Positions 11,868-27,873 of a stretch of 64,000 nt of DNA are shown in pieces. The stretch covers positions 829,881-893,880 of the forward strand of contig DAOORK010000001.1 in NCBI GenBank assembly GCA_035389185.1, read 5' to 3'. The DNA comes from Candidatus Woesebacteria bacterium. Lineage in GTDB: Bacteria; Patescibacteriota; Microgenomatia; UBA1400; MFAQ01. Under the pieces are notes generated by a model. That model was given only the letters and a program-made list of their open reading frames with translations. It did not search any database and was not told the origin of the DNA. The position numbers and the translations under genes were made by a program. Numbering within the stretch: the stretch's first letter is position 1; each line of letters starts with the position of its first letter.

Positions 11868-12545
11868 TTATTGGCAAGCGTTGGCAGGTAGGGAACACCA
11901 AGATGAAGCTTCGGCGGCACTATTTCGGCCGCAATTCACGGTGTCGTAATTGGGAGCACAGCTGCCCGCTTGAATGGGTTTACAAGCGCTGTCAACACAA
12001 CCATAAAATTTGGTGGCCAAACCAAGACCCGAACAACCCTCGATAATTTCTGCGTCGGTCATGTCGGGAGAGCTGACAATAAATAGTCCGGGACAGTAGG
12101 GATTTGAAGTTGATTCGGAAATATATTCATTGTCAGTTGATTGGGAGTCAAAAAAGGAGTCGCTTTCGGCGATGATGGCATATTTGCTGGGACTGGTTGA
12201 ACCTTTGGGAATGAGCCAGATGGTGTACGACCGTTTGGTGGTTGGGTCGCAGGGCATGGATTCGACATATGGACTAAGAACGTCGGAACCACAGGGATAG
12301 GTAAAGTGATCATCGGCGTCTTTGATGGGAAAGCTGGGATAGTTTTCGTGGTCGGCGTAATAACTTTCCATACCTTTTTGAATACGGGAGATATCGGCTT
12401 TGCGGCGAGCATCGTAGGCTTTATGAATTTGGGCGAGAGGATTGACGCCAATTAAAATCATGAGGCCGATGATGACGAGAATGCTGATGACAACAAGGAG
12501 TTCAACAAGTGTGAAACCGGAAAGATGATGTTGTTTTTTAATCAT
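11868..12545 (-). CDS. Type IV pilin / pseudopilin with a prepilin N-methylation signal
   Basis: Class III signal MIKKQHHLSG|FTLVELLVVISILVI, with Gly-1, Phe+1 and Glu+5. The C-terminal region is Cys-rich. Confidence 0.85.
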   Translation of the reverse strand: MIKKQHHLSGFTLVELLVVISILVIIGLMILIGVNPLAQIHKAYDARRKADISRIQKGMESYYADHENYPSFPIKDADDHFTYPCGSDVLSPYVESMPCDPTTKRSYTIWLIPKGSTSPSKYAIIAESDSFFDSQSTDNEYISESTSNPYCPGLFIVSSPDMTDAEIIEGCSGLGLATKFYGCVDSACKPIQAGSCAPNYDTVNCGRNSAAEASSWCSLPANACQ

Positions 12546-12573
12546 TGCTGATTTTATTTTAGCGCTTTTTTGA

Positions 12574-27600: not shown

Positions 27601-27873
27601 AAAGCGTCTAATTGAGGCTAAACGACGATTGATTGTGTTTTGAGGAGTAAATGCTTTTTTTTGTTCCTCTGAGTATAGGCTGACATACTTTGAAATATTT
27701 TGAAATATTTCTTGAACAGATGGTGGATTATTGTCGAGGGAAACTGAAGAACAAAAAGCAAAAAAATGGCGAAGATCAGAAAGATAATTCTTTATGGAGA
27801 CGGAAGAAAGTCCAGCCTCGAATAAGAATCCGGAGAAGAGAGTTTGGAGTTCTTTTTGGTTGGGCAGTTCCAT
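18622..27873 (-). CDS. Giant surface protein (3083 aa) with two N-terminal tyrosine-recombinase-like SAM/core-binding domains, a TM helix, tail-fibre-like repeats and Gly-rich domains
   Basis: Uninterrupted ORF. Residues 1-250 carry two copies of the pattern LxxFLxxxGLSxxSIKNYLSDLRHFFAFC ... RRLASIRRFSTFL, as in XerC/D N-terminal domains. A TM helix follows at ~aa 270. The extracellular part has three ~95-aa WQRT(D/S)GSLAP...NxGIGTxxP...L(D/E)(V/I) repeats typical of phage tail-fibre-like proteins, plus poly-Gly domains similar to those of the neighbouring giant protein. Confidence 0.85.
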   Translation of the reverse strand: MELPNQKELQTLFSGFLFEAGLSSVSIKNYLSDLRHFFAFCSSVSLDNNPPSVQEIFQNISKYVSLYSEEQKKAFTPQNTINRRLASIRRFSTFLSSKFGLQSSVSNLNHSPKPHFSFENTDSAPVSNALPILSKILEHFKLSLAREKKTYSTIKNYISDLNHFFAWSANETPFLDQRLENILSESHLNTYITYLKLSHTSTSVINRRQSSIKKFAKYCFSQKYLPANPFEIKIEVPHLAPLSWMERLRDKRNTPKKASRHPLVLLYHRYNSLPFTPYIHLAILALATSAMVIFGYNQIIKQAPSSSAAVPTVPRRQLSFQGRLTDSSGTPIVTAVNVIFKLWNAATSGTQLYTSNTCSITPDSNGIFNTLIGNGTCGQEIASTVFTENRDVFLEVTVGSETLTPRQQIATVGYALNSETLQGYPASAAATLNTIPVVDENGDINIAAASPTINSTSGTFTLNGQAITISTTANSGGDIILQPDAIGGGQVQILGATTTTDTFRIENANLTSGSLISGYVGNDTATGNLLALTSGSTETDRFIVGVNGRTLINTNGGTDSIFSASSAGITRFTIASNGDLLATGALSGLTGLTVSSGTVSLPSGEINNTEISELDWTKLQNYPSACPAGQAIQAVGDTLTCVDISAASGNLWQRTDGSLAPLNITDSLNLGATATASALVHLAGTAAENSWINTGYFGIGDTTPSYALDVTGDINLTGALRTSGSAGTATQVLTSTGTGVSWVDTSTVGNWQRTSGSLAPKNITDSLNLGSTATSSALVHLAGTIGENSWINNSGNFGIGTVNPTVKLDIAGGLKTLGASTMSASLATNIPLTVKGTTGQSANLQEWQNSSGGTLVSIDGVGRIVSVPTRAVNAGATNAGLKTTYTVNSATSDGDQSFGNLTYIYAAGTQNYTNNVAGVGGRAYQSGSGTVTNLRGLDYGIGIIGTGGTTNGVIANLSTYGSSTGTFANLTGLSIADLGAYNSPTTMYGIKTAAMTSAVGTSKYGIYLGSISGAATNNYAIYTNTGDIAFNAANEANTQVGIGLANPAYDLDVVGDINLTGALYDNGSAGTSGQVLSTTGTGVQWIDAPTGTGGGSNWQRTSGSIAPLYITDSLNLGATATSSALVHLAGTAGENSWINTGNFGIGDTTPASLFTVGDGDLFQVNSSGAIAAVAGITNTGIITSSGGNIDLNASSNYTTNINTGTSTGAVSIGGGSNTVAIDSSSWDISTSGAVSGITTINMSGQLTSTLATGSSPFVITSTTLNENLNADLLDGQHASYFAPLSNINGTTNRLAKFTDTNSIGDASINDLGSSVAMTIDSAGQIGIGLTTPLATLDVLGSASVSGSVRFSSLSTGIVHSDSFGNLSSSAVNLANSDVTGTLPILNGGTNNTTFTSGKFLAYDGSSIVSTSYDQNSFEAALTFTNGLTRLGNTVSLGGTLTSNTDVALDGFNFTFSGTGNVGIGTATPSAKLEIAGTNSLISNSTGDLTFNAASGFIDFSGDSLKNLLNATISGQLILGNFADTSQPVALGSGSLIYSTTANAPLYYDGSAWQSFGGYFNRTSEGIIYTKNNWSDSINLFASTNDGATSSAKIRLSGDSVYNTFFMNPIAIGFNTAIDQPVGGYTFALETNGGILPQTTNVDHLGSSGHAWKDLYLTEGIYQGGTGTESISIANNILANGDWHTSGGLKVGSITNLSGSNKLEVVGDASVSATLNIGIAAVFTPQTAAPTATTRGTLYYDNTYNDLYLNTDGTSAFHRLALDMTKYSSSSASVANAASLTLAYNSAYGGGTNNDISVTGWVYNTLTSAWDNISNFTHNIIQSLQNQFDAIGNSKTRTQSRLTDVELSPSVDTGTGADGAITVSSSTNINTTSLINGRSCADGGDAVNYSVTTLTTNTAVLSTTPSTGCLVAGDEILLINLQGTSTASINTGNYETLRIASISTNTITFTTSKTKNYGDNSSDDSNLGILDGTQRVMLQRVPNYTNVTVNASQNFTPSAWDGVKGGVLFFRANGTVSVSGTINANGIGFVGGPIAVSYPYGGEAFCSQSGGGTGASYLTGADRPGTNGVCGGGGGGAHNAAPGTGSATAGGAGGGGGDMSGSTNTWYGGGGGGGGYGSFGYGGSGVTSGGNGSTNASGDGGLASGSVSGAGGGGGGTYGNTNLTTLFFGSGGGAGGGFYTSTYPPKAGANGGGIIAISANSITVSGTISANGNNGTAGGSNQGGGGGGAGGSVLLNAGTLTLGSNLVSATGGTGGSATLGSGGNGGNGRTAIYYTSSYTGSTSSPTATYTQQPYYPYGIYHSAPIETPNAVTLDKIRWEATTSAYGKITFQTRTGNSTDPTDGTWEAWKPAVDGTNYLSLQTADTHTDWTGTNATVSDGSVTRNVNQFEDEDEATAGNTTQFVNTVPASGYAEATINATDISAYDYLTAWVYATASGNTVKIGFGESAATEQEETITIDATNTWQKIYWDLSDIASTSKDAITKLRITNLTNPWNTIHFDNIKVEKVYTTSSGSNITSTPNNYIQYRAIFTTINTAFQPKLNNVTIDYNDGYKISHVDDSNSVQLYNYTGLAQQLRLDVIVFGADLAEYYGVNDQSIGPGDVVAVTGELDSYKVPILRKSNSKNDSGLLGVISTNAGQTLGIEADDRRLLALAGRVPVKIASDSAAIKYGDYLTSSNEPGKAKKATIGEKTIGTALESWSPGNGKDTVLILVGTGGFLTPAIADLNAYTLTAKVAAQNASYEITNAAGEAIENIGIFSNILAANFQAGVGVIKELTVDNLTVRDTLISPIANIDELKVINATISGTLYADNIQGQTIDALHSQINLLNDKYSTASAILANLQARYGSYNSLLNYSADASASADPLSLSPLATTSAVIPSDLALNSLSVHTLIANDLMTNGAIFTNALSSFDNELFIQPQGDKPVHLLANLMTLYPDGKVLINGDLLITGTIFAQGLDTKTASVSGSLAVGSSTIASQSANFAQLTTNGLVIASGNDPLATVSGQTNSNATIGTSTIIAGTTEISILNTKVTPTTLIYVTPTSDTKGKVLYVKSKTDGIGFTVSLAGTGNNGYDISFNYWLVETK
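24340..26020. repeat. Three dispersed or tandem ~250-nt repeats encoding the tail-fibre-like module of the giant gene 18622..27873
   Basis: Copies at ~25760-26020, ~25450-25700 and ~24340-24600. The plus-strand phantom ORFs there (24326..24550, 25244..25684, 25793..26011) have near-identical translations, which reflects the DNA repeats. Confidence 0.55.

Follow-up and report, generated by a model that had tools for sequence, protein, structure and literature searches.

A probable cell-surface fiber locus beside a type IV pilin-like gene in Candidatus Woesebacteria

Introduction

How the ultrasmall bacteria of the Candidate Phyla Radiation (CPR, or Patescibacteria), almost none of which can be cultured, recognize and hold their hosts is an open question. 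Passages of the papers on Vampirococcus lugosii (PMC8080830) and on Absconditicoccaceae (PMC13059738) propose giant membrane proteins as host-attachment factors, and the epibiotic growth of Southlakia needs glycan-binding envelope proteins and type IV pili (T4P) (PMC10633639). The same question is raised by three genes in a 64-kb stretch of DNA from a Candidatus Woesebacteria bacterium (contig DAOORK010000001.1; hereafter, the window), in which a pilin-like gene lies beside two genes encoding proteins of 1959 amino acids (aa) (giant 1) and 3083 aa (giant 2). A first-pass annotation, made without database searches, had described a co-directional block on the minus strand with internal repeats in both giants. 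The coordinates of the open reading frames (ORFs) agree with this description, with intergenic gaps of 28 nt (pilin/giant 1) and 168 nt (giant 1/giant 2) and a block of 16,006 nt, or 25% of the window.

What might this block do? We consider it probable that it is a conserved cell-surface fiber/adhesin locus of Candidatus Woesebacteria. The surface or attachment role first suggested for the giants fits their N-terminal anchors, their modules of phage receptor-binding type and their domains resembling carbohydrate-binding modules (CBM-like domains); the partner in such attachment may be a host cell.

Giant 1 carries two diverged copies of a phage-type glycine-rich module

Giant 1 starts with a basic stretch and then a single hydrophobic helix, an arrangement found in all homologs inspected. 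Gene callers differ on its start over identical DNA (1959 versus 1781 aa), so that the exact N-terminus is uncertain. The domain that comes after the helix is conserved among the homologs and weakly resembles DUF7948 (PF25778, E = 3e-4, below cut-off). The internal duplication of about 400 aa and the three tandem FN3-like modules reported in the first-pass annotation were recovered by self-BLAST: residues 342–742 and 1013–1381 aligned segment by segment with 45–77% identity and segment E-values down to 3e-49, and the modules within residues 1466–1852 shared 50–67% mutual identity. Giant 1 has five FN3-like modules overall; the fn3 profile (PF00041) scored 17–19 bits against a cut-off of 25, and the self-similarity of these repeats is highly significant. 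Among orthologs the module copy number ranges from 1 to 4, a spread that represents long-term domain shuffling. A total of 658 homologs was detected, and nearly all of the named sources are Patescibacteria.

Both copies of the duplication contain a Gly_rich_2 domain (PF21722; two matching stretches, 110.7 bits, cut-off 24.3), and the Gly content per 100 aa reaches 36–45% at residues ~400–600 and ~1050–1250. Runs of Gly ending in (I/V)3VRY had been ascribed to both giants; Gly-rich stretches are indeed present in both, whereas the GGSG(I/V)3VRY ending is confined to the Gly_rich_2 domains of giant 1, one in each copy (GGSGIIIVRY in copy A). We built an alignment (A1) of copy A (residues 335–745), copy B and 24 homologous modules. 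An AlphaFold 2 (AF2) model of copy A residues 335–745 reached a predicted local distance difference test score (pLDDT) of 87.3. The model best matched the glycine-rich receptor-binding domains of the cyanophage Pam3 tail fiber gp24 (7YPX/7YFW) and of mycobacteriophage Bxb1 gp33 (9D93), in that a TNF-like β-sandwich base bears a lattice of extended Gly-rich strands (a polyglycine-II/polyproline-II [PPII] bundle). At the sequence-profile level the match to Pam3 was marginal (E = 0.07). The poly-Gly runs with their (I/V)3VRY end therefore form one defined domain, and not the β-helix or β-roll envisaged at first; judged by its position in the sequence, the VRY strand probably closes the sandwich.

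Pam3 gp24 has a TNF-like domain with a glycine-rich lattice; its Gly stem is conserved, its receptor-binding tip is hypervariable, and its relatives include S16 gp38 and the ALK ligand-binding domain (PMC9608196). The Pam3 and Bxb1 gp33 domains were classed as glycine-rich PPII bundles in a 2026 paper (PMC13243192). These phage domains (with S16 gp38, 6F45) belong to the fold class of the ALK/LTK ligand-binding domain and to Pfam PF21722, and their conserved Gly stems and hypervariable loops are found in the giant 1 module too. In the Gly part of A1, columns with a majority of G had a mean identity of 71%, compared with 47% for the other columns, and 85 of the 301 columns were insertions; the CBM-like part was 73% conserved. 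Between copies A and B, identity is 72.6% over the CBM part and 44.9% over the Gly part, where it falls to 24% outside G:G columns. Conserved Gly columns separated by variable, indel-rich columns are the pattern reported for phage adhesins, and would arise if specificity resided in the loops and each copy had a target of its own. The giant 1 module differs from its phage counterparts in being internal, duplicated and fused to CBM-like and FN3 domains in an anchored protein of 1959 aa, whereas the phage domain is the tip of a virion fiber of ~250–300 aa. Pam3 also has a chaperone gene, gp25, and no such gene was identified at the giant locus.

Relatives of the module were found in phages. Foldseek comparison with predicted viral structures gave 204 matches at E ≤ 1e-3, mainly “glycine-rich domain-containing proteins” of cyanophages and uncultured Caudovirales, and comparison with PHROGs gave phrog_2295 at E = 4e-89, plus tail-fiber phrogs. 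A scan of IMG/VR with A1 yielded 79 loci (L033–L111) in which ORFs of 300–1700 aa contain the CBM-like part (identity up to 76%), with the whole Gly-rich and CBM module present in about 10 of them. One carrier of 1428 aa (L039:3609-7892) comes after a tape-measure gene with one small ORF, encoding a phrog_8610 protein, between the two, which is a tail-tip position. None of the 79 loci contains the giant 2 base, the giant 2 C-terminal element, the pilin or obg, thereby indicating that they are not mis-binned copies of the cellular locus. Taken together, these data suggest module exchange between phages and the giants of Patescibacteria. A tblastn search of GenBank phages with the module gave no match, probably since low-complexity masking strips the Gly-rich part, and no paper on PF21722/Gly_rich_2 was found in a literature search.

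Giant 2 is misnamed as a site-specific integrase

The two N-terminal domains of giant 2 are mutually related (residues 26–98 versus 153–222) and of the core-binding type. The XerD and XerC models scored 52 bits against cut-offs of 330–335 and aligned at model positions 8–94 only, and the Phage_integrase catalytic domain (RHRY) had no match anywhere in the 3083 aa in whole-protein and piecewise Pfam scans. Because the protein contains core-binding domains only and no catalytic domain, the name “site-specific integrase” is wrong; the label is a domain-transfer error. Giant 2 thus resembles XerC/XerD in its two N-terminal core-binding (SAM-like) domains, and differs from them in lacking the catalytic domain, in its predicted membrane span and in its length. 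In whole-protein and piecewise profile scans, no catalytic domain of any kind was detected in either giant, and searches of the sequences of the giants and their pieces against the PDB gave nothing useful.

The core-binding domains are followed by a transmembrane (TM) helix that is almost invariant in the family (consensus ...TPYLHLAILVLATSAMVIFGYNQII), and the charge distribution around it suggests an N-in, C-out topology. Directly after the helix lies the conserved base, whose sole NCBIfam match, to the ~130-aa β-rich N-terminal domain (NF053851) of the Bdellovibrio fibers called mosaic adhesive trimers (MATs), was obtained in all six family members tested (E 3e-10 to 2.6e-4), at 28–40 bits against a cut-off of 60 and over profile positions 14–79 of 162. 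A search with residues 250–560 among 1.84 billion representatives gave 351 clusters (50% identity) at E ≤ 1e-30 and 1318 at E ≤ 1e-10, the match always lying near the N-terminus of the family members. The 217 members in hand have a median length of 2245 aa and a maximum of 5631 aa, and 113 of them have a SAM-like N-terminus. Homologs have in common the first ~550 and the last ~350–650 residues of giant 2, with a mosaic middle; the conserved C-terminal element is present in 53 of the 169 long members and, in one subfamily, is always at the extreme C-terminus. Various relatives bear LamG, Peptidase_S74 (PF13884), Peptidase_G2 (PF11962 in some) or Hint domains. A pattern scan of viral contigs with the base found no relatives, and a literature search on SAM-like domains in CPR giants gave nothing relevant.

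The three stalk repeats, first noted as ~95 aa in length, were found to be ~100-aa units with 51–69% identity (E down to 1e-33). They contain [FVI]GIGxxxPxxxLxV motifs, of which there are six in the whole of giant 2, and which resemble the capping-loop motif of MATs but are out of register. MATs are surface fibers of Bdellovibrio bacteriovorus, similar to phage tail fibers, in which a conserved base after the signal peptide is combined with mosaic adhesive tips (Caulton et al. 2024, PMC10769870). In the Gly-rich region, the Gly content at residues ~2000–2300 is in the same range as in giant 1 (36–45% per 100 aa). AgmC_N (NF047640), the N-terminal domain of a Myxococcus gliding-motility protein, scored 64.6 bits there against a cut-off of 275, a likeness that is no more than remote or compositional. 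A Gly-rich domain type common to the two giants was considered and rejected, the hhalign comparison with Gly_rich_2 having given a probability of 41% over 15 columns; PF21722 had no match in giant 2. The CBM-like sandwiches of the two giants are 35% identical (BLASTP, E = 1.4e-7). Between this sandwich and the C-terminal element lies a weak Peptidase_G2/XM1_gp53-like stretch (Peptidase_G2, E = 0.05), and the last ~75 aa of the protein weakly resemble distal domains of phage tailspikes (Foldseek, best E = 6e-3), a likeness that is suggestive only.

Giants and pilins recur together in related genomes

The 225-aa protein has a prepilin motif, SGFTLVELLVV (G|FTLVELLVV), a hydrophobic segment at residues 6–41 and a Cys-rich C-terminal half. 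Its initial identification as a pilin was borne out by matches above cut-off to PF07963 N_methyl (24.4 bits; cut-off 21.2) and TIGR02532 (19.3 bits; cut-off 16.3). Scores for specific types were below cut-off (GspG TIGR01710, 34 against 88.85 bits; ComGC NF040999, 23 against 75 bits). These results support a type IV pilin or pseudopilin-like protein that is not assignable to the GspG or ComGC type.

In four relatives (L001–L004), a giant with Phage_int_SAM domains (Int_SAM giant), zero to three Gly-rich or LamG giants, a pilin and obg occur in this order, and the pilin orthologs hold the equivalent position. Three giants lie downstream of the Int_SAM giant in L001, together with a 197-aa TM protein, and a Bro-N gene on the opposite strand (L001:1192-2013) separates the Int_SAM giant from the one that follows it. 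A PhdYeFM/ParE toxin–antitoxin pair is found between giant and pilin in L002 (18800-19300) and likewise in L003.

A scan of GTDB genomes with a single pilin sequence gave nothing, and a scan seeded with a three-sequence pilin alignment gave 26 species-level loci, which make 29 together with L001–L003. In 17 of the 29, the pilin cluster has a giant ORF no more than 2 kb away, mostly at 80 nt or less and in co-directional or convergent orientation; this fraction is inflated by shared ancestry among loci that were picked by pilin homology. The adjacent giants are of the Gly_rich_2 kind (L017, L022, L024, L026), the Int_SAM kind (L004, L008, L016), LamG-rich (L010:7679-16987, L028:10591-17610) or of the collagen-triple-helix kind (L019:11113-16401, L021:12324-19652). 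Because the types of giant at the pilin cluster differ between genomes, this position looks like a conserved slot beside pilins for interchangeable giant surface proteins. The claim that the giants stand beside T4P genes thus holds in that the neighborhood recurs in many related genomes, and fails in the window itself, where the pilin was the one pilus gene found among the scanned ORFs.

The block is at least 99.997% identical in independent assemblies

Assembly artifacts in the repeats, named at the outset as a possible flaw, were not seen. The block and ~10 kb on each side were matched by contigs of JGI 3300009782, ENA ERZ761564 and Logan SRR4244858, with 99.997–100% identity across 28–29 kb and zero indels. 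Repeat copies within the genes are 66–77% identical in DNA, and the longest exact word common to two copies is 9–17 nt. Assembly collapse or chimerism is excluded, because three assemblies from other projects agree without indels and the repeat copies are too diverged. The same data argue against the proposal that the repeats allow recombinational variation in length and sequence: the copies are a poor substrate for homologous recombination and no variant was seen in the other assemblies, so that ongoing variation of this kind is not supported. The single output of a tandem-repeat finder was a GGT run of eight units.

Some features of the DNA of the block may be recorded here. The 168-nt spacer (18454-18621) contains a hairpin-capable stretch, TTCGG-tact-CCGAA inside ATTGC...GCAAT, without a T-run. 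A weak promoter-like site (18488-18461) lies immediately upstream of the GTG of giant 1, and the best promoter-like match of the region, TTGACT-17-TATATT (28119-28091), is upstream of giant 2. Plus-strand GC skew is above zero in nearly all 2-kb windows (typically +0.1 to +0.36; ~0 at 20–22 kb) regardless of gene strand; in the giants it reflects Thr/Ser/Ala/Pro-rich coding, with a C-rich sense strand, in part countered by the GGN runs.

Discussion

The ORFs, domains, repeats, fold match, family sizes and conserved gene order are observed here. As a whole, these results can be combined into a proposal for a surface structure, in which we infer topology, extracellular display, oligomeric state, adhesion, pilus co-operation and co-transcription. 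Giant 2 would be a type-II membrane protein, with its two recombinase-type core-binding domains in the cytoplasm and without recombinase activity; its single conserved helix would span the membrane and place the MAT-like base at the cell surface, from which the mosaic stalk would extend outward like a phage tail fiber. Giant 1 would be held by its N-terminal signal anchor and would present two diverged phage-type receptor-binding modules (TNF-like/polyglycine-II plus carbohydrate-binding-type sandwich), with the FN3 units as spacers. By analogy with phage fibers, the variable loops between the Gly stems and the CBM-like sandwiches may bind glycans or proteins of a partner cell or surface, and the neighboring pilin may give a type IV filament for first contact or for drawing cells together.

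Several observations weigh against this proposal. Genes for pilus assembly (PilB/PilC/PilD-type) were absent among the scanned ORFs of the window (most of those of at least 200 aa and several shorter ones), so that synteny alone links the giants to the pilin, and the count of adjacent loci carries the ascertainment bias noted above. A promoter and terminator scan of the block gave no signal above the shuffled background and thus no evidence of an operon. Giant 2 and its subfamily show conservation at both ends and variation in between, the opposite of phage fibers and MATs, whose tips vary, and the NF053851 scores of the base stay below cut-off. Giant 2 had no confident match to S74 (PF13884) or another chaperone domain. 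An AF2 monomer model of its C-terminus had a pLDDT of 51 and was confident for the last ~75 aa only; because this region could not be modeled, a trimeric fiber is not demonstrated. Finally, adhesion leaves the cytoplasmic core-binding domains of giant 2 without explanation.

Other explanations have to be set against the same evidence. The giants could be T4P accessories, such as tip or shaft adhesins or docking fibers, that depend on the pilin rather than being independent membrane-anchored adhesins. Pilin and giant are tightly adjacent (gaps of 3–80 nt in most loci) through changes of orientation and giant type, the gap of 28 nt in the window would allow co-transcription, and the MAT paper raises a possible interplay of fibers and T4P (PMC10769870). 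However, each giant has a membrane anchor of its own at the N-terminus and lacks a prepilin G|FTLxE motif. Neither minor pilins nor PilY1-like proteins were detected in the window, and many loci have giants and pilins in convergent orientation, so that they are not co-transcribed there; we regard this explanation as rather unlikely. We also hold it unlikely that the giants serve another surface role, as an S-layer-like coat or spacer, a phage decoy or shield, or a scaffold for harvesting or degrading glycans. Their size, repetitiveness and richness in Thr, Ser and Gly would suit such roles, CBM-like domains are typical of glycan-processing proteins, and closely related domains in phage contigs (up to 76% identity) would agree with an arms race or mimicry; against this stand the failure to detect a catalytic domain in either giant and the best structural matches, which are to receptor-binding parts of phage fibers. 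S-layer proteins, moreover, do not usually take the form of mosaics several thousand residues long with an N-terminal TM anchor.

A phage origin of the whole block, as tail-fiber cargo of a prophage or mobile element, might be read from phrog_2295, the tail-fiber phrogs, the phage-type modules and the Phage_int_SAM domains. We judge it very improbable, since capsid, terminase, portal and tape-measure genes were not found nearby, the flanks consist of housekeeping and competence genes (obg, LysM/M23, comEA, comEC), the position beside obg is kept in distant relatives, and N-terminal TM anchors are unlike virion fibers; the giant 2 base has no viral-contig relative, and the viral loci with the module gave no Int_SAM-giant, pilin or Obg matches. 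That giant 2 is a functional integrase is scarcely credible in spite of its database names and its significant Phage_int_SAM and N-terminal XerC/XerD matches, in view of the partial XerC/XerD alignment, the missing catalytic domain and the TM helix and ~2800 extracellular-type residues that come after the core-binding domains. For an artifactual origin of the repeats and giant ORFs we found no supporting point; the source is a metagenome-assembled genome. The agreement of the three assemblies and the divergence of the repeats effectively refute it, and its probability is negligible.

The surface fiber/adhesin locus that we favor can be compared with MATs. Giant 2 is similar to them in its tail-fiber-like character, its conserved base directly after an export or anchor signal and its mosaic body, for which display is predicted here; some of its relatives end in Peptidase_S74 or G2 chaperone domains, and Bdellovibrio and the CPR bacterium both live at other cells' expense. 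In contrast to MATs, giant 2 is two to three times longer, has a TM helix after a predicted cytoplasmic domain of ~275 aa in place of a cleaved signal peptide, lacks an S74 match and, in its subfamily, conserves the C-terminal 350 aa and varies the middle. With the giants of Vampirococcus and Absconditicoccaceae, as far as the passages on them go, the locus shares a reduced CPR genome, a large coding share for TM- or signal-bearing proteins of more than 1500 aa with adhesion-type domains (FN3, lectin-like) and the presence of T4P and competence genes. Those passages list PKD, integrin, WD40, DUF11 and fibrinogen domains and contain no mention of Gly_rich_2/PPII modules, of an Int_SAM-TM-fiber architecture or of a conserved pilin linkage. 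The best-supported conclusion, a surface fiber/adhesin locus genetically linked to a type IV pilin, fits the published proposals for CPR attachment and adds to them the PPII-bundle module, the Int_SAM-TM-fiber architecture and the pilin linkage, none of which was found for CPR giants in the searchable literature.

In proteins of the ToxR/CadC type, one TM helix joins a cytoplasmic N-terminal DNA-binding domain (winged helix) to a large portion outside the cytoplasm. The predicted topology of giant 2 is similar, and the analogy is functional only: the fold is that of a recombinase core-binding domain, and DNA binding or signaling would be assigned by analogy alone. We offer as a speculation, and think it quite unlikely to hold in full, that the Int_SAM-TM-fiber giants are an undescribed and widespread family of Patescibacteria, comprising 351 or more 50%-identity clusters, in which a host-recognition fiber derived from a phage tail fiber is coupled via one TM helix to cytoplasmic core-binding domains of DNA-binding type. 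Such a protein might act as a ToxR-like contact sensor or as a nucleoid or DNA tether that links host contact to gene expression or DNA handling, working with the pilin and an interchangeable adhesin cassette near comEA, comEC, dprA and comM.

If the giants are surface adhesins, the locus yields attachment candidates that can be interpreted structurally, namely cellular giants that reuse a receptor-binding module of phage tail fibers, and the conservation of their arrangement in related genomes makes them good candidates for attachment to a host or surface. A large family named “site-specific integrase” would in reality consist of membrane-anchored fibers, which corrects a systematic annotation error. 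An exchangeable adhesin slot beside pilins (Gly-rich, LamG-rich or collagen-like) might make host-range determinants predictable from metagenomes, and the findings point to an exchange of modules between CPR cells and phages in their surroundings.

Feature coordinates and other genes of the window

Table 1. Coordinates of the pilin and giant genes and of the predicted domains of the giants (positions in the window)
Feature	Position	Strand	Residues or length	Remarks
Pilin ORF	11868-12545	minus	225 aa	
Giant 1 ORF	12574-18453	minus	1959 aa	GTG start; NCBI PLI45_04805, “hypothetical protein”
Giant 1, TM helix/signal anchor	18175-18270	minus	62–93	hydropathy 2.74
Giant 1, N-terminal conserved extracellular domain (predicted)	17434-18171	minus	~95–340	weak DUF7948 likeness
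Giant 1, module copy A	16219-17430	minus	342–745	Gly_rich_2 ~342–619; CBM-like β-sandwich 620–745
Giant 1, extra CBM-like β-sandwich and FN3-like unit	15556-16212	minus	748–845; ~850–966	self-similarity; weak Pur_ac_phosph_N (FN3-type) match
Giant 1, module copy B	14311-15417	minus	1013–1381	second Gly_rich_2, terminating in GGSGIVVVRY, and CBM-like sandwich
Giant 1, C-terminal array	12604-14058	minus	1466–1852; ~1853–1950	three tandem FN3-like modules, then classical FN3; self-similarity; fn3 and DUF4962 N-terminal matches
Giant 2 ORF	18622-27873	minus	3083 aa	“site-specific integrase” in NCBI and JGI
Giant 2, two Phage_int_SAM core-binding domains	27163-27828	minus	16–96; 137–237	PF02899, E = 3.3e-12, two stretches
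Giant 2, TM helix, ...TPYIHLAILALATSAMVIFGYNQII	26974-27042	minus	278–300	K/R-rich stretch before helix
Giant 2, conserved extracellular base (predicted)	26194-26973	minus	301–560	315–380 remotely like Bdellovibrio MAT N-terminal domain
Giant 2, stalk with three tail-fiber-like repeats of ~100 aa	24364-26019	minus	619–719; 720–819; 1068–1170	self-BLAST
Giant 2, Gly-rich region	20974-22320	minus	~1852–2300	up to 43% Gly; weak AgmC_N likeness
Giant 2, CBM-like β-sandwich	20317-20580	minus	2432–2519	common with giant 1 residues 1311–1395
Giant 2, C-terminal conserved element	18625-19686	minus	2730–3083	predicted long helices, then small β-sandwich

The block is flanked on one side by obg, which is convergent to it, and on the other side by five co-directional genes for secreted or anchored proteins and then by comEA and comEC; LysM/M23 is also among the flanking genes. 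The six co-directional genes upstream of giant 2 (28484-35051, minus strand) encode a 242-aa multi-TM protein, secreted β-rich proteins of 261 and 477 aa, two proteins (328 and 322 aa) that combine a signal peptide with a TM anchor at the C-terminus, and a Big_13 protein of 512 aa whose C-terminal region is multi-TM; in L002 a Big_13 gene likewise precedes the Int_SAM giant. The 322-aa protein has a weak WxLIP_PGBD match (PF06030, E = 0.0017), and the layout of the six genes resembles that of the WxL cell-surface-complex loci of Firmicutes.

A diversity-generating retroelement (DGR) was also considered for this region and rejected, since no match to a reverse-transcriptase family was found among the scanned ORFs, which include most of those of at least 200 aa in the window. 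Competence genes near the locus are comEA, comEC, dprA and a comM-like Mg-chelatase ATPase gene (35311-37819, 44551-45396, 46483-48003), with comEC called as two adjoining ORFs for the Competence and Lactamase_B parts (35919-37034 and 37043-37819). Three tRNA-Ala genes lie inside 1.4 kb (40396-41792), and two of them have an identical CGC anticodon on opposite strands.

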